Part shown: piece by piece, positions 12,794-19,048 of the stretch
How positions within the stretch are numbered: the stretch's first letter is position 1
How the letters are laid out: the number at the start of each line of letters is the position of its first letter
Assembly: GCA_963700635.1 (NCBI GenBank)
Contig: CAVOYH010000001.1
Coordinates: forward strand, 256,001 to 320,000
Reading direction: 5' to 3'
Source of the DNA: an uncultured Bacteroidota bacterium
GTDB lineage: Bacteria; Bacteroidota; Ignavibacteria; UBA10030; UBA6906
Length of the DNA: 64,000 nucleotides
The notes under the pieces: model-generated
The model's input: only the letters and a program-made list of their open reading frames with translations
Databases searched by the model: none
Told to the model about the DNA's origin: nothing
Made by a program: the position numbers and the translations under genes

Positions 12794-14085
12794 TCACACG
12801 CTACACGCGACCCGCTATGGGCGCCATCTGGGAAGATGAGAACAAATTCCGGATCTGGCTCGAAATTGAAATACTTGCCTGCGAAGCGCAGGCGAAACTG
12901 GGTGTTATCCCGGCGGAAGCCGTGTCAAATATCCGTGCCAGAGCCGCCTTCGAAGTCACGCGGATCGAAACACTCGAACAGGAAGTCAAACACGACGTTA
13001 TCGCGTTTTTGACCAATGTCGGGGAACATGTTGGTCCGGACTCCCGGTACATCCATCTCGGCATGACCTCATCAGACGTCCTGGATACTGCGCTTGCTGT
13101 GCAGATGAAGCAGGCGGGGGAGCTGTTGCTCCAGGGGCTCCAGGAGCTTGCGACGGTCCTTGCGCGCAGGGCCAGGGAGTTCAAGACTACGGTGATGGTC
13201 GGACGTACGCACGGTATTCACGCAGAACCGATTACCTTTGGCTTGAAACTGGCTCTCTGGTACGCGGAAACCCAGCGACATATCAGCCGCCTGCAATCGG
13301 CCCTTGAACGTATTGCCGTCGGACAGATATCGGGAGCGGTGGGGACCTTCGAGCACCTGAGTCCGGACGTGGAGGAGTATGTGTGTGCAAAGCTCGGCCT
13401 CATCCCGGCGCCTGTTTCGACGCAGGTGCTCCAGCGCGACCGCCATGCAGAATTTATGAACGCGCTGGCCCTTGTGGGATGCTCCCTGGAAAAATTCGCG
13501 ACGGAAATCCGGCATCTGCAGAAGACGGAAGTTCTGGAAGCGGAGGAGTTCTTTTCCAAGGGACAGAAGGGTTCTTCCGCGATGCCCCACAAACGAAATC
13601 CCATCACCTGCGAACGTGTCGCAGGCCTCTCCCGCGTTCTGCGCGGGAACGCCCAGGCGGCAATGGAGAACGTCGCCCTCTGGCATGAACGTGATATCAC
13701 CCATTCCTCGGTGGAACGGGTTGTGATCCCTGACAGCTGTATCCTGCTGGACTACATGCTGGCGCTCATGACGGACGTGCTGGACAAGCTTGTGGTTTAT
13801 CCCGCGAATATGCTCAAAAACCTGGAACGGACACGCGGACTGATTTTCTCCCAATCTGTGCTCCTGGCCCTCACCAGAAAGGGAATGAAGAGGGAAGATG
13901 CCTATCGTATCGTTCAGCTTGCGGCGATGGAGGTGTGGGAGAGCGGGGCGGAGTTCAAGGAACGGCTCCTCGCCGAACCCGCAGTCGGCGAAATTCTGGG
14001 TGCCGAGACTGTAGAAGGGATGTTTGACTTGCAGAAGAGCATCAAATATATCAACGTGCTGTTTGCCCGTGCTGGGCTTTCGTAA
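12790..14085 (+). CDS. purB: Adenylosuccinate lyase
   Basis: MITRYTRP, KHDVIAF, HLGMTSSD, GRTHGIHAEP, GSSAMPHKRNP. Confidence 0.97.
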   Translation: MITRYTRPAMGAIWEDENKFRIWLEIEILACEAQAKLGVIPAEAVSNIRARAAFEVTRIETLEQEVKHDVIAFLTNVGEHVGPDSRYIHLGMTSSDVLDTALAVQMKQAGELLLQGLQELATVLARRAREFKTTVMVGRTHGIHAEPITFGLKLALWYAETQRHISRLQSALERIAVGQISGAVGTFEHLSPDVEEYVCAKLGLIPAPVSTQVLQRDRHAEFMNALALVGCSLEKFATEIRHLQKTEVLEAEEFFSKGQKGSSAMPHKRNPITCERVAGLSRVLRGNAQAAMENVALWHERDITHSSVERVVIPDSCILLDYMLALMTDVLDKLVVYPANMLKNLERTRGLIFSQSVLLALTRKGMKREDAYRIVQLAAMEVWESGAEFKERLLAEPAVGEILGAETVEGMFDLQKSIKYINVLFARAGLS

Positions 14086-14124
14086 AGACAACTGTGCATG
14101 ACTGACATAATGAGGACTCTTGGT

Positions 14125-15618
14125 ATGGCCAAAAAATTTCAGAACTTTGTCAACGGCAGGTGGGCTGACGCAAAGTCAGGCAAGACCTTTGAAAACCGTA
14201 ATCCCGCAAACTGGGACGAGGTCATCGGGACATTCCCCAAATCCGGCAAAGAAGACGTCGAAGAAGCTGTACAGGCTGCGCGCAAAGCCTTTGATTCGTG
14301 GCGGCTCATGCCGGCCCCCAAGCGGGGCGATATTCTGAAGGCGGTGGGTGATCTGATGGTTGCACGGAAGGAAGATCTTTCCCGGATGATGACCCGCGAA
14401 ATGGGGAAGGTCCTCGCCGAGACACGAGGTGATGTGCAGGAGGGAATCGATACTGCCTACTATGCGGCGAGCGAAGGACGCAGGCTGTTCGGTCATACGG
14501 TCCCGTCGGAACTGCCCAATAAATTTAATATGGCGATGCGCGTGCCGGTGGGTGTCGCCGGTATTATTACACCCTGGAATTTTCCCATGGCAATCCCAAC
14601 ATGGAAAATCTTCCCGGCACTGCTCTGCGGTAATACGGTCGTGTTCAAACCTGCATCGGATACTCCGGCCACGGCGACAGCGCTCGTCGAGATCCTCGCC
14701 GAAGCGGGAGTCCCGGACGGTGTGGTGAACATCGTGCACGGTGGAGGGGGAGAGGTCGGCAATGCGATCGTCAACCACACGGAGGTTGATCTTGTAAGTT
14801 TTACGGGCTCGACTTTGGTGGGGAAGAAGATATCCGAAGTGGCGTCCGCCACGCTCAAGCGGGTGTCCCTCGAACTTGGCGGTAAGAATGCACAACTCGT
14901 CATGCCTGACGCGACCATGGAACTTGCGCTGGAAGGTGTATTGTGGGGGGCATTTGGAACCACCGGCCAGCGGTGCACTGCCACCAGCAGACTGCTTTTG
15001 CATGAGAACATTCATGACGCATTTATGGAAACCCTCATCCGGCGTGTGAACAGTCTAAAATTGGGCGACGGCCTGAAACCCGGGGTAGATGTCGGCCCGT
15101 GCGTAAACGAGGGTCAGCAGAAGACGGTGCAGAGTTATGTCGAGATCGGCCTCAAGGATGGCGCGACCCTTGCCGCCGGAGGGTCAGTGCCCGGAGATAG
15201 TGAGCTGGCAAAAGGCTGGTTCTACAAACCTACGGTGTTTACGGGCGTCCAGCCGCATCACCGGATCGCGCAGGAAGAGATCTTCGGTCCGGTACTGTCC
15301 GTGATCAAATTCCGCACGCTGGAAGAGGGTATCCGCATCATGAACGATACCATCTACGGCCTCTCTTCGTCAGTCTACACGACGAACGTCAACGATGCCT
15401 ATACGGCGATACGTGATATTAAAGCCGGGATCACCTATATCAATGCGCCGACGATCGGGGCTGAAGCACACATGCCGTTCGGCGGTGTCAAACAGACGGG
15501 CAACGGCCACCGCGAAGGCGGATGGACGGTCTACGATTTCTTCTCGGATTGGAAAACGGTCTACGTGGATTATAGCGGCGGTCTCCAACGCGCCCAGATC
15601 GACAACTATCAGAGCTGA
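14125..15618 (+). CDS. Aldehyde dehydrogenase, probably piperideine-6-carboxylate/aminoadipate-semialdehyde dehydrogenase
   Basis: PWNFP, FTGS, LELGGKN, GQRCTA, EEIFGP. GAGGA SD before ATG 14125. Specificity inferred from the neighbouring lat. Confidence 0.9.
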   Translation: MAKKFQNFVNGRWADAKSGKTFENRNPANWDEVIGTFPKSGKEDVEEAVQAARKAFDSWRLMPAPKRGDILKAVGDLMVARKEDLSRMMTREMGKVLAETRGDVQEGIDTAYYAASEGRRLFGHTVPSELPNKFNMAMRVPVGVAGIITPWNFPMAIPTWKIFPALLCGNTVVFKPASDTPATATALVEILAEAGVPDGVVNIVHGGGGEVGNAIVNHTEVDLVSFTGSTLVGKKISEVASATLKRVSLELGGKNAQLVMPDATMELALEGVLWGAFGTTGQRCTATSRLLLHENIHDAFMETLIRRVNSLKLGDGLKPGVDVGPCVNEGQQKTVQSYVEIGLKDGATLAAGGSVPGDSELAKGWFYKPTVFTGVQPHHRIAQEEIFGPVLSVIKFRTLEEGIRIMNDTIYGLSSSVYTTNVNDAYTAIRDIKAGITYINAPTIGAEAHMPFGGVKQTGNGHREGGWTVYDFFSDWKTVYVDYSGGLQRAQIDNYQS

Positions 15619-15622
15619 CACC

Positions 15623-15679
15623 ATGACGCGCCAGCCGCTCTATAATGTTTCGCTGTTCGAGCATAACGAATTCTTCTGA
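15623..15679 (+). CDS. Putative 18-aa leader peptide MTRQPLYNVSLFEHNEFF
   Basis: ATG 4 nt after the ALDH stop. TGA 3 nt before the anti-SD arm of the lat leader hairpin. Translation not proven. Confidence 0.5.
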   Translation: MTRQPLYNVSLFEHNEFF

Positions 15680-15682
15680 AGT

Positions 15683-15736
15683 TCACTCCTCCGCCGTCGT
15701 GGTGTCCACAGACTATTATACTTTTTGGAGGAGTGA
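15683..15736 (+). promoter_or_regulatory. SD-sequestering stem-loop upstream of lat
   Basis: TCACTCCTCC (15683-15692) is the exact reverse complement of GGAGGAGTGA (15727-15736), which contains the lat SD. Nested hairpin GTCGTGG/CCAC-A-GAC in the loop. Confidence 0.75.
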
Positions 15737-15742
15737 TACAGT

Positions 15743-17161
15743 ATGAAGAAGCGTAAGAGCAGGACCACACGGGCGCCGCGCAAACCGGCAGTCGCCCGAA
15801 AGAAGACAAAAACCACCCGCCGCGCCGGCTCACGGCGTACGGTCGTTCATTCCCGCCTCAACCCCGCGCTGGTGTTCCCCGCTTTACGGAAACACATGCT
15901 CATTGACGGATTCGAGATCGTGATTGATCTGCAGCGCAGCAAAGGTTCGTTTATTGTTGACGCGCAGGACGGAAAACTCTATCTGGACTTCTTCACGTTT
16001 GTCGCGTCGTCGCCGGTCGGATTAAATCATCCCAAGATGACGTCGCCGGATTTTCTTGAGCACCTGGCATACGTGGCAGTGAACAAACCTTCAAATTCAG
16101 ACATTTACACTGCCGAACAGGCCGAATTCCTGGAGACCTTCTCCCGGGTCGGCATTCCATCATACCTCCCGCACGCGTTTTTTGTCGAAGGCGGCGCGCT
16201 GGGGGTGGAAAACGCCCTCAAAGCGTCGTTCGATTGGAAGATCAGAAAGAACTTCGCAAAAGGATACCGGGAAGAACGCGGGAAACAGGTGATTCATTTC
16301 CGGCATGCTTTTCACGGTCGGACGGGATACACATTATCGATGACCAACACGGATCCCGTGAAGACCGATTATTTCCCCAAGTTCGGTTGGCCCCGTGTGG
16401 ACAGCCCGATTCTCCGTTTTCCCCTCACCCCGGAAAACCTCGCGCAGGTGCAGCAGGAAGAGCAGAAGAGTCTGAACCAGATCAAGGACGCATTCCGGCA
16501 AAACAAAGACGATGTTGCCGCAATTATCATCGAAGCAATCCAGGGTGAAGGGGGAGACAATCACTTCCGCCCCGAGTTCTTCCGGGCGCTCCGACAACTG
16601 GCAGATGAAAATGAAGCCATGCTGATCATTGATGAAGTCCAAACCGGCATCGGCATGACGGGGAAGATGTGGGCCCATCAGCACTGGGGGGAGCCCGACA
16701 TGATCGCATTCGGCAAAAAAATGCAGGTGTGCGGTTTCCTCTGCGGTCGCCGGATCGACGAGGTGAAGGAAAATGTCTTCACGGTTCCAGGCCGCATTAA
16801 TTCAACCTGGGGCGGTAATCTGGTTGACATGGTCCGTGCCCAACGGTACCTGGAAATTATCGAAGAAGAGGATCTCGTCAGGAATGCCGCGGTTGTGGGA
16901 AAGTTTCTTCTGAAACGGCTCCAGGGACTGGCGGAGGAGTTCCCCGAGGTAATCTCAAATCCGCGAGGGCTCGGCCTCTTTGCGGCCGTGGACGTGGCCA
17001 CACCGGAAAAACGCACGGAAATTCGCAACGGGTGTTATAACCTGGGACTCATCCTGCTGCCCAGCGGCGAACGGGCGATCAGGTTCCGCCCGCCGTTGAC
17101 GGTCACCGAGGAGGAGATTGAGCTCGGAATAGAAATTATCCGGAAGGTGATGCAGCAGTAG
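15743..17161 (+). CDS. lat: L-lysine 6-aminotransferase (class III PLP enzyme)
   Basis: NKPSNSDIY, GALGVENALK, AFHGRTGY, IQGEGGD, DEVQTG, FGKK (PLP Lys), INSTWGG, RFRPPL. Confidence 0.93.
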   Translation: MKKRKSRTTRAPRKPAVARKKTKTTRRAGSRRTVVHSRLNPALVFPALRKHMLIDGFEIVIDLQRSKGSFIVDAQDGKLYLDFFTFVASSPVGLNHPKMTSPDFLEHLAYVAVNKPSNSDIYTAEQAEFLETFSRVGIPSYLPHAFFVEGGALGVENALKASFDWKIRKNFAKGYREERGKQVIHFRHAFHGRTGYTLSMTNTDPVKTDYFPKFGWPRVDSPILRFPLTPENLAQVQQEEQKSLNQIKDAFRQNKDDVAAIIIEAIQGEGGDNHFRPEFFRALRQLADENEAMLIIDEVQTGIGMTGKMWAHQHWGEPDMIAFGKKMQVCGFLCGRRIDEVKENVFTVPGRINSTWGGNLVDMVRAQRYLEIIEEEDLVRNAAVVGKFLLKRLQGLAEEFPEVISNPRGLGLFAAVDVATPEKRTEIRNGCYNLGLILLPSGERAIRFRPPLTVTEEEIELGIEIIRKVMQQ

Positions 17162-17188
17162 TCCTGTAACACAGTGCCACGTTCCAGC

Positions 17189-17228
17189 AGGGCCAGTAAC
17201 TACACCGGTAGCTTCTGGCCCTTTTTTT
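17189..17228 (+). terminator. Intrinsic terminator after lat
   Basis: AGGGCCAG...CTGGCCCT stem followed by a T-run, between convergent genes. Confidence 0.75.
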
Positions 17229-17251
17229 CGAGCTCCGACCGCTGCCCTGCC

Positions 17252-19048
17252 TCAGCGGAGCAGGATCATTTTGTTGCTCACCACCGACCGGCTTCCGTCC
17301 GCCCCCACGGCGGTGAATCGGCAGATGTATGTTCCCGCCGCTACGTGTACACCACCCGCGTCAGTCCCGTCCCAACGTACGGTGTACGTTCCGCCGACCT
17401 TCTGTCCGCGTACCAGCGTCAGGACCTCACGGCCCAGGATATCGTACACGGCAATGGAGACCCCGGATGGAACCGGGACGCCGTACACGATGACCGTTCC
17501 GGCGTTAAAGGGGTTTGGATAGTTTTGCCGCAGGAGATACGTTTCCGGAGGTACTGGTGATGTATTGGTGTCCGTGCCGCTTAACCTGTTATGCGCAGCG
17601 AGGGCGTTGAGGATCCCCCAACCCATCAGATTGTCGGGGGTGGATGCCCTGCTTGCCGTTTGTCGCATGGCGTCAACGATCACCATTGGAGGAAGGTTGG
17701 GATGCGCCTTCACCAGAAGTGCAGCAACACCGGCTGCAAGCGGGCAGGAGAAGGACGTTCCCTGGGCATTAAATCGATAGCCCGTGACTTGTGTTTCGCT
17801 TGCTACTGTCACGCTTGATCCGAGAGCCATCACGTCCGGCTTGAACCGCGGAGGAGCTGCTGTGGTCGGACCGACAGAGCTGAAGGAAGTCCGCTTCCCG
17901 CTCAGATCGACAGCTCCAACAGCAAGCACACTGTCCGCATCAGCCGGTGCGACAAGCGTATTGTGCGTTGGACTAAAACCTTCGTTCCCTGCCGAGTTCA
18001 CCACGAGAATCCCCTTGCGGACCGCCATGGCTGCTGCACGGCTGATGACGGTCGTCCTGCCGTCCATGTCTTCCCATGTCCAGCTGGTATATCCCGGATC
18101 GTACACATCGTATCCCAGAGAGGTGCTGGTAACCTGCACGCCGAGACTGTCGGCCCATTCAATGGCCCGCACCCATTTATCCTCTTCGAGAGGTGTTTCA
18201 CTGCTGTCGTTTTCGGTCCGGGCCAGAATGTAACTCGCGCCGTAGGCCGGACCGATCAGCTGACCGGGTTTGAATCCGCCGATGGTGGAGAGGGTATTGA
18301 CCCCATGGTCGCCGAAGGAGGTGTTGGGATTGTTCGGTACAACGCTCACCTTGTAGTCGACAAAATCGTATGTGGCGATGATATTCATCGAGGCAAACGC
18401 CTCGTGGTTGAGGAGACGGAATCCGTTGTCGAAAACGCCCACGATCACACCCTGGGCACTATTACCGAGATCATGGAGCGCCGGCACATTAATCTGCGTG
18501 ACCTGATTCACCGACGGACCGTAGTCCAGTGCATGAGCACTCGTCGTTTTGGGCATGGACGACGGAGCGGCTGGAGTTTCCGACACGGGAGGAGGAGGAT
18601 GAGACCGCCTGGACCGGCCGACGAGTTCGATCTCGCGTACAAACGGCAAGGCTGCAATGGCAACAATCTGCCCGGCGGTTGCCTGGATACTTACCGCGTT
18701 GAACCATTTCGAGCTATGCCGCAGGACAGCACCGGTGGCGCTGAGCCGGGCAACATATGATTCATCAACGGGGAGATCCGAGTATTCGACAAGGGCATCG
18801 GGAGGCAGCACATTCGCACGCCGGCGGAGGGAGTGTTCAGTGACGACGGAATACGGGACGGAGGATTTCAACAACTCCCCTCCTCCTTTGTCAGCGAGGT
18901 ATACCCACACCAGCTGATTGGAAGTCTTGTCTGAACTGTTAAGCACGCCGGAGAGTTGTGGTCCGATTATTCCCTTTGCGGCGATGGATGGAACGGCAAG
19001 AAGGGAAAAAAGGGCCACAATAAGCATATTTTTAAACAAGAACCTCAT
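17252..19048 (-). CDS. Secreted S8 (subtilisin-like) serine peptidase with T9SS-type C-terminal domain
   Basis: Signal peptide. Triad GVFDNG / DHG / GTSFSCP, oxyanion SAGNEG. C-terminal QNYPNPFN...YDILGREV...WDG...KMILLR. Confidence 0.92.
   Translation of the reverse strand: MRFLFKNMLIVALFSLLAVPSIAAKGIIGPQLSGVLNSSDKTSNQLVWVYLADKGGGELLKSSVPYSVVTEHSLRRRANVLPPDALVEYSDLPVDESYVARLSATGAVLRHSSKWFNAVSIQATAGQIVAIAALPFVREIELVGRSRRSHPPPPVSETPAAPSSMPKTTSAHALDYGPSVNQVTQINVPALHDLGNSAQGVIVGVFDNGFRLLNHEAFASMNIIATYDFVDYKVSVVPNNPNTSFGDHGVNTLSTIGGFKPGQLIGPAYGASYILARTENDSSETPLEEDKWVRAIEWADSLGVQVTSTSLGYDVYDPGYTSWTWEDMDGRTTVISRAAAMAVRKGILVVNSAGNEGFSPTHNTLVAPADADSVLAVGAVDLSGKRTSFSSVGPTTAAPPRFKPDVMALGSSVTVASETQVTGYRFNAQGTSFSCPLAAGVAALLVKAHPNLPPMVIVDAMRQTASRASTPDNLMGWGILNALAAHNRLSGTDTNTSPVPPETYLLRQNYPNPFNAGTVIVYGVPVPSGVSIAVYDILGREVLTLVRGQKVGGTYTVRWDGTDAGGVHVAAGTYICRFTAVGADGSRSVVSNKMILLR

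Follow-up and report, generated by a model that had tools for sequence, protein, structure and literature searches.

How the gene for L-lysine 6-transaminase (lat) is made accessible to ribosomes is the question raised by a locus in which its Shine-Dalgarno (SD) sequence is perfectly complementary to a segment just past the end of a very short open reading frame (ORF). The locus lies in a stretch of 64,000 nucleotides from an uncultured Bacteroidota bacterium of the class Ignavibacteria (GenBank assembly GCA_963700635.1, contig CAVOYH010000001.1, positions 256,001 to 320,000), here termed the window, and the short ORF, here termed the leader, is placed between an aldehyde dehydrogenase (ALDH) gene and lat. 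Judging from sequence comparison, this unannotated gene of 18 codons is very probably a translational switch. We lean, with rather more confidence than doubt, towards a cis-acting regulatory peptide that operates together with an anti-SD translational attenuator of lat, which makes the leader a candidate for a new ribosome-stalling sensor peptide. The locus is composed as follows:

14098 to 15618, + strand: ALDH gene (Pfam Aldedh, E 9.1e-175)
15623 to 15679, + strand: leader ORF of 18 codons plus TGA, encoding MTRQPLYNVSLFEHNEFF (conserved peptide in relatives)
15675 to 15693, + strand: 5' arm of the sequestering helix (anti-SD), core 15683-15693 (fold and duplex)
15696 to 15713, + strand: small inner hairpin within the loop that the main helix closes (folds)
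15726 to 15742, + strand: 3' arm, comprising the lat SD GGAGGAG (15727-15733) and the spacer to the start codon (fold and duplex)
15743 to 17161, + strand: lat, L-lysine 6-transaminase (TIGR03251, aligned from residue 45)

The stop codon TGA of ALDH occupies 15616-15618, the leader ATG follows four nucleotides later at 15623, and the leader terminates with the TGA at 15677-15679. The segment TCACTCCTCC (15683-15692), 3 nt past the leader stop, perfectly complements GGAGGAGTGA (15727-15736), which contains the lat SD, 6 nt ahead of the lat ATG at 15743. This arrangement was initially described from the letters of the window (the sequence-only reading), and its description and all coordinates of leader, stem and SD hold on direct reading. 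Upstream, the leader frame stays open to 15395, and the reading with 18 codons is preferred because the proximal start is conserved in relatives. A look-up of RNA and DNA sequencing runs covering 15300-16300 returned none.

The leader ORF in related genomes

To sample the region ahead of lat, LAT, and not the leader, was sought in 61 relatives and was matched in 60. The DNA upstream of the LAT orthologue was taken from 55 genomes (30 plus 25 loci), leaving out G016, G021, G023 and G032, where the LAT match was truncated or fragmented, as well as G054 and G055, which had no orthologue-level match; one locus (L026) has no upstream DNA, so that 54 loci from nine families of one order were usable. 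A leader ORF is present in 52 of the 54, as expected from the sequence-only reading, which had predicted a conserved peptide. The two loci without it both belong to family f3, genus g31, and have lat placed almost immediately after the ALDH stop.

Counted back from the stop, E-6, H-5 and E-3 are invariant in all 52 leaders, with an entropy of 0 at codon positions 1 and 2 and of 0.84-0.99 bits at position 3, which is the bias toward synonymous substitution that had likewise been predicted. F-2 and F-1 are each found in 49 of the leaders, and position -4 is Q in 42 leaders and, as in the window peptide, N in 8. Further upstream, S-9 is present in 44 leaders and is written with the codons TCG, TCA, TCT, TCC and AGT, Val-10 is written with all four codons, and position -12 is Y in 37 and otherwise F or H. 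Residues N-terminal of -12 vary (3.7 to 2.5 bits), whereas the last 12 are conserved; in the families other than that of the window (f1), GRP residues further upstream are conserved as well. The stop codon directly follows the final FF or FY in 52/52 loci and can be any of the three (TGA 36, TAA 14, TAG 2). Taking the start nearest to the motif, the leader is 18 amino acids long in 41 of 52 loci and 17-19 in 48. The synonymous variation, the conserved C-terminal dozen residues and the fixed stop junction together argue that the leader is a translated ORF, and the codon pattern indicates that this C-terminal dozen is under selection at the level of the protein.

In all 52 loci carrying it, the leader stands directly ahead of lat, 55-190 nt upstream. 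Its start is located -4 to +37 nt (mode 4) from the ALDH stop in 34 of these, and an SD-like 4-mer precedes the start in only 11 of 52. In the other 18 loci ALDH is not adjacent or is absent, and the leader still precedes lat. The sequence-only reading had considered a relay that ensures synthesis of the dehydrogenase before that of the enzyme producing its substrate; as a general rule this does not hold, given these 18 loci and the promoter-like element that many of their leaders possess. Read-through or frameshift extension of ALDH is ruled out as the origin of the peptide, since the gap between stop and leader start ranges from -4 to +37 nt and the frame changes. Leaders distant from ALDH come in a long form of 34-36 amino acids, M(K/N)FF...GRPYI.S.YEHQEFF (L048, L035, L053, L064, L082, L125 and 17 others), and are preceded by a conserved promoter-like element, consisting of a TTGAC-like box, about 17 nt, GTATATT and another 5-6 nt before the ATG. 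Because this element lies so close to the start codon, the long form would be read from a leaderless, or nearly leaderless, mRNA.

The occurrence of the leader was followed beyond these relatives in two ways. A scan for the codons of EHQEFF followed by a stop, in one genome each of 185,579 species, returned at least 120 stretches. Among the matches listed, nearly all are from Ignavibacteria, Ignavibacteriales, Ignavibacteriota or unclassified Bacteroidota metagenome-assembled genomes (MAGs), and lat lies downstream in 76 of 80 long-flank and 37 of 40 short-flank loci. Four of the seven listed matches without lat are cut by a contig or locus end, and the remaining three are chance matches, namely L063 (a Nitrospirota MAG), L112 (a goat-rumen bacterium) and L118 (an 'uncultured bacterium'). 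The second survey was a census of 401 genomes drawn evenly from the class (among them G410, flagged as unpublished), for which a looser pattern and a reversed-pattern control were used. The looser pattern is found exactly once per genome in 57 of 63 genomes of the window's order and in 1 of 337 genomes of other orders, and the reversed pattern gave 0 matches, while LAT is present at E <= 1e-100 in 62 of 63 and 283 of 337 genomes, respectively. The six genomes of the order that were missed include G302 with the variant EHDEFF, G042 (L043) with EHLEFF, G154, G163 and G295, where purB is directly upstream of lat and no leader is present, and G412, which has no LAT match. On these counts, the leader appears to be restricted to one order of Ignavibacteria.

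The sole match outside the order, L189 (G129:C6:534400-536700, family f22), is a complete ALDH-leader-lat unit, suggesting transfer or a patchy distribution in f22, where it occurs in 1 of 37 genomes. A metagenome scan with the variant EHNEFF yielded 29 loci, 11 of which are genuine; the others are chance matches, e.g. within longer ORFs ending in ...EHNEFFW.

A different conserved upstream ORF (uORF), MKRIYG(Q/H)NKAA..., of 31-62 amino acids, precedes lat in the sister families f13, f25 and f30 (L178:384-569, L185:411-596, L194:414-590, L177:76-255 on the - strand and L176:205-297 on the - strand). In three f13 loci (L178, L185, L194) it overlaps the lat start, as judged by eye. Its start pattern occurs once each in 6 of the 401 class genomes, directly upstream of lat in the 5 that have LAT coordinates, and the uORF has no Pfam or NCBIfam match. 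Its position hints at independent support for control of lat by a leader.

Pairing of the leader end with the lat Shine-Dalgarno region

When the 71 nt from 15675 to 15745 are folded, 15683-15693 and 15726-15736 form a stem of 11 bp, 15676-15678 and 15739-15741 add three outer pairs, and 15696-15713 forms the inner hairpin, which is the second hairpin that the sequence-only reading had placed inside the loop. The 5' arm extends from the last base of the final Phe codon (15675) across the stop codon to the post-stop CUCCUCC. The fold has a free energy of -24.1 kcal/mol (z = -3.3), which is equalled by 1 of 200 dinucleotide shuffles; a longer fold of 142 nt is less exceptional (z = -1.65, 14 of 200 shuffles). 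Taken as a duplex, the helix of the window reaches -21.3 kcal/mol (z = -5.5 against a shuffled partner). The inner hairpin survives forced opening of the main helix in the window fold, and its sequence shows no conservation among relatives.

Across 141 unique loci the spacer from leader stop to lat start is constrained in length, with a median of 68 nt (interquartile range 62-75) and 63 nt in the window. When the last leader codons are included in the folds, one long hairpin encloses this spacer in one of three registers. The first belongs to the window's genus and joins the SD GGAGGAG to CUCCUCC, located 6-10 nt past the leader stop. In the second, used by the remainder of family f1, it is the Q-E-F-F codons GGAAUUCUUCU (Phe-Phe codons UUCUUCU) that bind AGGAGAAUUCC, made up of SD and spacer, and this pairing explains the recurrent GGAGAATTCC just ahead of the lat ATG in f1. 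The third is adopted by the other families, whose SD is of GGUG type; here a UUAGAACGAAUU-like segment immediately 5' of the SD is the partner of the leader end, and the SD GGUGCUC is complementary to the E-H-Q codons GAGCACC. The partners of the SD are located at +6 to +10, -3 to -9 or -15 to -18 relative to the leader stop, and the 5' arm spans -8 to +14 around it in the duplex analysis. A covariance model of the window's register (R1) found only its 8 seeds and 3 close relatives among 90 loci, so that this register is a feature of the genus and is not general. An unusual feature is that in most lineages the peptide's own last codons appear to double as the anti-SD.

Folds of minimum free energy place the SD partner within -24 to +16 of the leader stop in 39 of 51 AGGAG-type and 47 of 60 GGTG-type loci (86 of 111 non-redundant loci). 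The mean SD-pairing fraction is 0.70 for the AGGAG type and 0.67 for the GGTG type, compared with 0.21 and 0.15 when this zone is shuffled (Wilcoxon p 3e-8 and 2e-10). The complementarity is specific to each locus: over 113 non-redundant loci, duplexes between the leader end plus 14 nt and the lat upstream region reach -15.5 kcal/mol when both come from one locus and -10.2 when they come from different loci (0 of 2000 permutations), and the same -15.5 compares with -10.9 for windows of lat coding sequence from the same locus (Wilcoxon p = 1e-15). The 16 post-stop nucleotides taken alone give -11.09 versus -8.11 +/- 0.23 in a GC-stratified permutation (0 of 2000), and even the last 12 leader nucleotides, which differ only by synonymous and stop-codon changes, pair slightly better with their own partner (-7.74 versus -7.16 +/- 0.13; 0 of 2000). 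Compared with shuffled partners, the duplexes have a mean z of -2.45, with 63 of 113 loci below -2.

At the level of the genus, an alignment of 8 sequences has a 13-bp helix that is 85.6% paired, as opposed to 76.8% in shuffles (0 of 500) and 42-59% in slid controls. Six of its 13 pairs carry changes on both sides, which 10 of 500 shuffles reach, and the covariation score is 0.255 versus 0.116 (0 of 500). A model-guided alignment of 11 sequences gives a similar helix result. The computation thus shows a locus-specific complementarity by which the leader's terminal zone and the SD pair, and the comparative data place the feature far outside chance. Two further predictions of the sequence-only reading are borne out at this point: the spacing from stop to stem is fixed in that the 5' arm starts in the last codons or a few nucleotides from the stop, and compensatory changes in the stem are apparent from the double changes in the genus and the permutations across loci. 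The anti-SD idea that it put forward extends beyond the window, but in three registers, of which that of the window is confined to its genus.

Mode of action and competing explanations

The pairing suggests a switch with two states. In the off state, the last leader codons and the bases after the stop would pair with the lat SD region, such that the 30S subunit cannot start lat. In the on state, a ribosome at the leader end would hold the 5' strand in the mRNA channel, leaving the SD free. The conserved C-terminal 12-15 residues, located in the exit tunnel at this stage, may slow or block termination and would thereby lengthen the open state available for lat initiation; such a block could be constitutive or, more attractively, responsive to lysine or a breakdown product. 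In the window's family, where the leader mostly lacks an SD of its own and begins a few nucleotides past the ALDH stop, it would probably be fed by ribosomes leaving ALDH.

A ribosome unwinds and covers about 12 nt on the upstream side and 15 nt on the downstream side of the first P-site base, which corresponds to about -18 to +9 when the stop codon is in the A site. All three anti-SD registers are inside or at the edge of this span, and from the ribosome footprint we infer that the ribosome would open the helix. When 15662-15689 is held open in the window, the SD is unpaired with a probability of 0.42 instead of 0.00, and the AUG with one of 0.95 instead of 0.60. Across family f1, the SD has a median unpaired probability of 0.02 in the free RNA (below 0.3 in 29 of 32 loci) and of 0.33 with a ribosome at the stop.

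That translation of the leader opens the lat SD is well supported. On our best inference, the conserved peptide would in addition prolong the open state by slowing termination, since conservation is limited to the residues in the tunnel, the stop junction is invariant, the length is fixed at 18 amino acids and any stop codon is accepted; the fixed length would also keep the whole chain within the tunnel. Lysine or a catabolite as the ligand is a guess by analogy, made because lat is lysine-catabolic and the known examples, catabolic and biosynthetic, sense the amino acid of their own pathway. The most far-reaching form of the proposal, a lysine- or lysine-catabolite-sensing ribosome arrest peptide whose signal directly unmasks the ribosome-binding site (RBS), with uORF control in the sister families being independent, is put forward only tentatively. 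If it were true, the leader would be the third nascent chain in bacteria to sense a free amino acid in the exit tunnel, after TnaC and SpeFL, a single 12-nt stretch would act as peptide effector and RNA switch at once, and the sister families would have reached control of lat independently by an unrelated uORF.

Several observations weigh against a cis-acting regulatory leader peptide of lat. At least three losses of the leader have occurred with lat retained, in f3 g31, in two g52 species and in G295 of g57, and the leader is therefore dispensable. At the third positions of the Glu, His and Phe codons the changes are transitions that also preserve G-U pairing, so that constraints on peptide and RNA are not fully separable at -6 to -1. 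The last two Phe codons are TTC in 89 of 98 cases (0.91), compared with 66% in lat, which indicates that a constraint at the level of the RNA acts on them on top of that on the peptide. Regarding accessibility, the modelled switch is only moderate: with a ribosome at the stop, the mean unpaired probability of the whole initiation region rises from 0.38 to 0.47, and the rise is equal with a ribosome five codons earlier; in the 15 loci outside f1 from the LAT-first set, the modelled SD does not open (0.24 versus 0.22). When the two strands are treated as a simple duplex, only 60 of 113 loci have a 3' arm that overlaps the SD, and the pairing between GGTG-type SD and His-Gln codons is not testable by covariation because both sides are nearly invariant. 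Finally, every passage of a ribosome would open the helix, so that coupling without arrest is possible.

This last point leads to plain translational coupling, in which translation of the leader melts the SD-masking helix and neither sensory arrest nor a ligand is involved, an explanation that we regard as doubtful. Here the conservation of the peptide would reflect codons that double as anti-SD or that tune termination and re-initiation, and in the window's family the ribosomes would come from ALDH. The proximity of most leader starts to the ALDH stop and the rarity of SD-like 4-mers agree with this, as do the anti-SD within the leader's own last codons in most families, the enrichment of TTC and the opening that is as large with a ribosome five codons before the stop. 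However, residues -12 to -7 lie outside the helix and are nevertheless conserved, with four-fold and six-fold synonymous variation; neither the fixed length of 18 amino acids nor the upstream GRP residues in non-f1 families is predicted by coupling, and ribosomes leaving ALDH do not feed the leader in 18 of 52 loci.

A free functional micropeptide, e.g. a small subunit or modulator of LAT, with the helix as an ordinary coupling device, is improbable. The strong conservation at the protein level, the constant co-location with lat even after rearrangements and the lack of matches to known families, which leaves room for a function of its own, would be compatible with such a peptide. Conservation, though, is found only in the last 12-15 residues, with the stop as its exact end in 52/52 loci, while the N-terminal part ranges from few to about 20 residues between the forms of 18 and 34-36 amino acids. 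LAT exists without the peptide in the 283 of 337 sister-order genomes and in those lineages of the order that lost the leader, an unrelated uORF takes the same place in the sister families, and 18 residues with no cysteine pattern or hydrophobic helix have little to fold with.

That the stem is merely an intergenic terminator, processing site or stabiliser and the ORF a chance frame is hardly credible, for although the hairpin is stable and T-runs follow hairpins, by eye, in the longer spacer of some AT-rich relatives, the + strand of 13900-17400 contains no terminator-like (or promoter-like) site, no T-run follows the window stem, protein-level conservation of the ORF extends over nine families, and the 3' arm is the SD itself. 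The T-run hairpins of the AT-rich families were seen in L032, L034 and L036 and are not consistent, so that a terminator was rejected there as well. An attenuator reading Phe codons was also rejected, as it does not fit the invariant E-H-x-E residues and the catabolic lysine gene.

The loci that lost the leader are L037 and L038 (f3 g31), L191 and L192 (f8 g52) and L193 (f7 g57), and in three of them purB is immediately upstream of lat.

Relation to known leader peptides and neighbouring genes

By its features the leader fits the functional class of regulatory leader and arrest peptides and appears to lie outside every sequence family described for it. As in arrest leaders, a short cis ORF stands before the gene and is conserved in the tunnel residues; as in erm/cat attenuation, the RBS is sequestered, the other strand would lie under the leader ribosome, and compensatory change is found. 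The NCBIfam and Pfam libraries hold models for leaders of TnaC and SpeFL type, and a search with five leader forms gave no family at E <= 10, including none of these two types. Rfam, applied to 18 related loci, returned one weak match to an antisense ctRNA (E = 0.4) and nothing else, with no lysine riboswitch, and has no match at E <= 1 in the window at 14000-17500. Among 5.8 billion clustered proteins, no candidate shares three 5-residue words with the 46-residue leader form. A literature search, with subscription-only papers outside its reach, found no leader peptide described for lysine aminotransferase, in line with the statement of the sequence-only reading that it knew of no such element for lat.

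The same reading had argued against a classical codon-starvation attenuator for lysine, which agrees with the 52 leaders: Lys accounts for 11 of the 936 residues encoded by their last 18 codons and is absent from the window peptide, and no terminator with a U-run is present on the + strand of 13900-17400. Nor is the long spacer with a Rho-utilisation site that characterizes TnaC and SpeFL found, as the spacer here measures about 63-68 nt, Rho dependence itself not having been tested. The loose resemblance to SpeFL that it had noted is functional at most, there being no match to a curated family. Taken as a whole, its interpretation is partly supported.

With respect to RNA logic, the erm/cat attenuators and SecM-secA are the closest systems, and with respect to biology TnaC, SpeFL and PepNL. 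In SecM-secA and MifM-yidC2, the SD of the downstream gene becomes exposed when the ribosome arrests near the end of the ORF before it; both differ from the lat leader in being long, force-sensing monitors that are secreted or inserted into the membrane, and not 18-residue peptides held in the tunnel. The cat and cmlA leaders follow the same translational attenuation logic as the erm leaders. In the latter, as with ErmCL, a ribosome stalled in a short leader holds the hairpin strand that masks the downstream RBS (PMC5499644), just as proposed for lat. The erm, cat and cmlA systems differ in that their inducers are antibiotics binding to the tunnel or the peptidyl transferase centre, that they control resistance genes, that stalling occurs at internal codons, and that the peptides are unrelated.

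SpeFL is an ornithine-sensing arrest peptide upstream of speF in gamma-proteobacteria (10.1101/604074). Like the lat leader, it is a short ORF before the gene of an amino-acid-metabolising enzyme, uses all three stop codons among species, contributes the 3' end of its ORF to an mRNA hairpin, and has aromatic residues near its C-terminus, which are essential in SpeFL (10.1101/604074). By contrast, SpeFL has 34 residues, acts through Rho-dependent termination and is followed by a 257-nt spacer, while the helix of the lat leader directly covers the SD; both stalling and a ligand have been demonstrated for SpeFL (10.1101/604074) and are only proposed for the lat leader. The two have no sequence relationship. 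TnaC, the tryptophan-sensing leader of the tryptophanase operon, resembles the proposed lat leader in serving a catabolic amino-acid operon, in the inhibition of termination by the free amino acid, and in its dependence on conserved residues spread along the part within the tunnel (PMC8429421, PMC11890864). Its output differs, being transcription antitermination via Rho and not unmasking of an SD (10.1101/604074); moreover, its sequence is unrelated and it belongs to another phylum. PepNL of E. coli, with 14 residues, arrests at its stop inside the tunnel and affects the downstream gene, as envisaged for the lat leader, but needs no inducer, and tryptophan inhibits its arrest via read-through (PMC11890864). 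The long-form leaders can be compared with the leaderless cysteine-responsive attenuators of mycobacteria, which are unannotated short ORFs at the 5' end of transcripts but contain runs of codons for the regulated amino acid (10.1101/834739), whereas the lat leaders are poor in Lys.

A deeply conserved candidate before a lysine-catabolic gene would offer a new case open to direct testing, in a phylum whose gene regulation has hardly been studied. To our knowledge, only a handful of nascent peptides sense small metabolites. The bacterial ones named as sensing amino acids are TnaC and SpeFL (10.1101/604074, PMC11890864). The comparative set supplies a natural mutagenesis over nine families, with two size classes, three anti-SD registers and several losses, and, should the ligand be lysine or a catabolite, the 120-nt cassette could serve as a compact translational biosensor. 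The leader also exposes a blind spot of annotation, being present in nearly every genome of the order and yet unmatched, in its 46-residue form, among the clustered proteins.

The assignment of the flanking genes differs in certainty. The lat product scores 651.7 bits with TIGR03251 (cut-off 520.8). The ALDH reaches no NCBIfam cut-off: its best model, GucD, gives 550.9 bits (cut-off 770), and the model for piperideine-6-carboxylate dehydrogenase 388.8 (cut-off 730). Its top-scoring models are those for 2-oxoglutarate-semialdehyde and 2,5-dioxovalerate dehydrogenase, both below cut-off; on the basis of synteny only, it is the probable partner dehydrogenase of LAT. The LAT of the window carries a Lys/Arg-rich N-terminal extension of 44 residues (15743-15874) ahead of the TIGR03251 core, and this extension and the start codon are common to the relatives in the genus. 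Several genera of the family have similar extensions, 30-60 residues long, and the copy in L006 contains a threefold tandem repeat.

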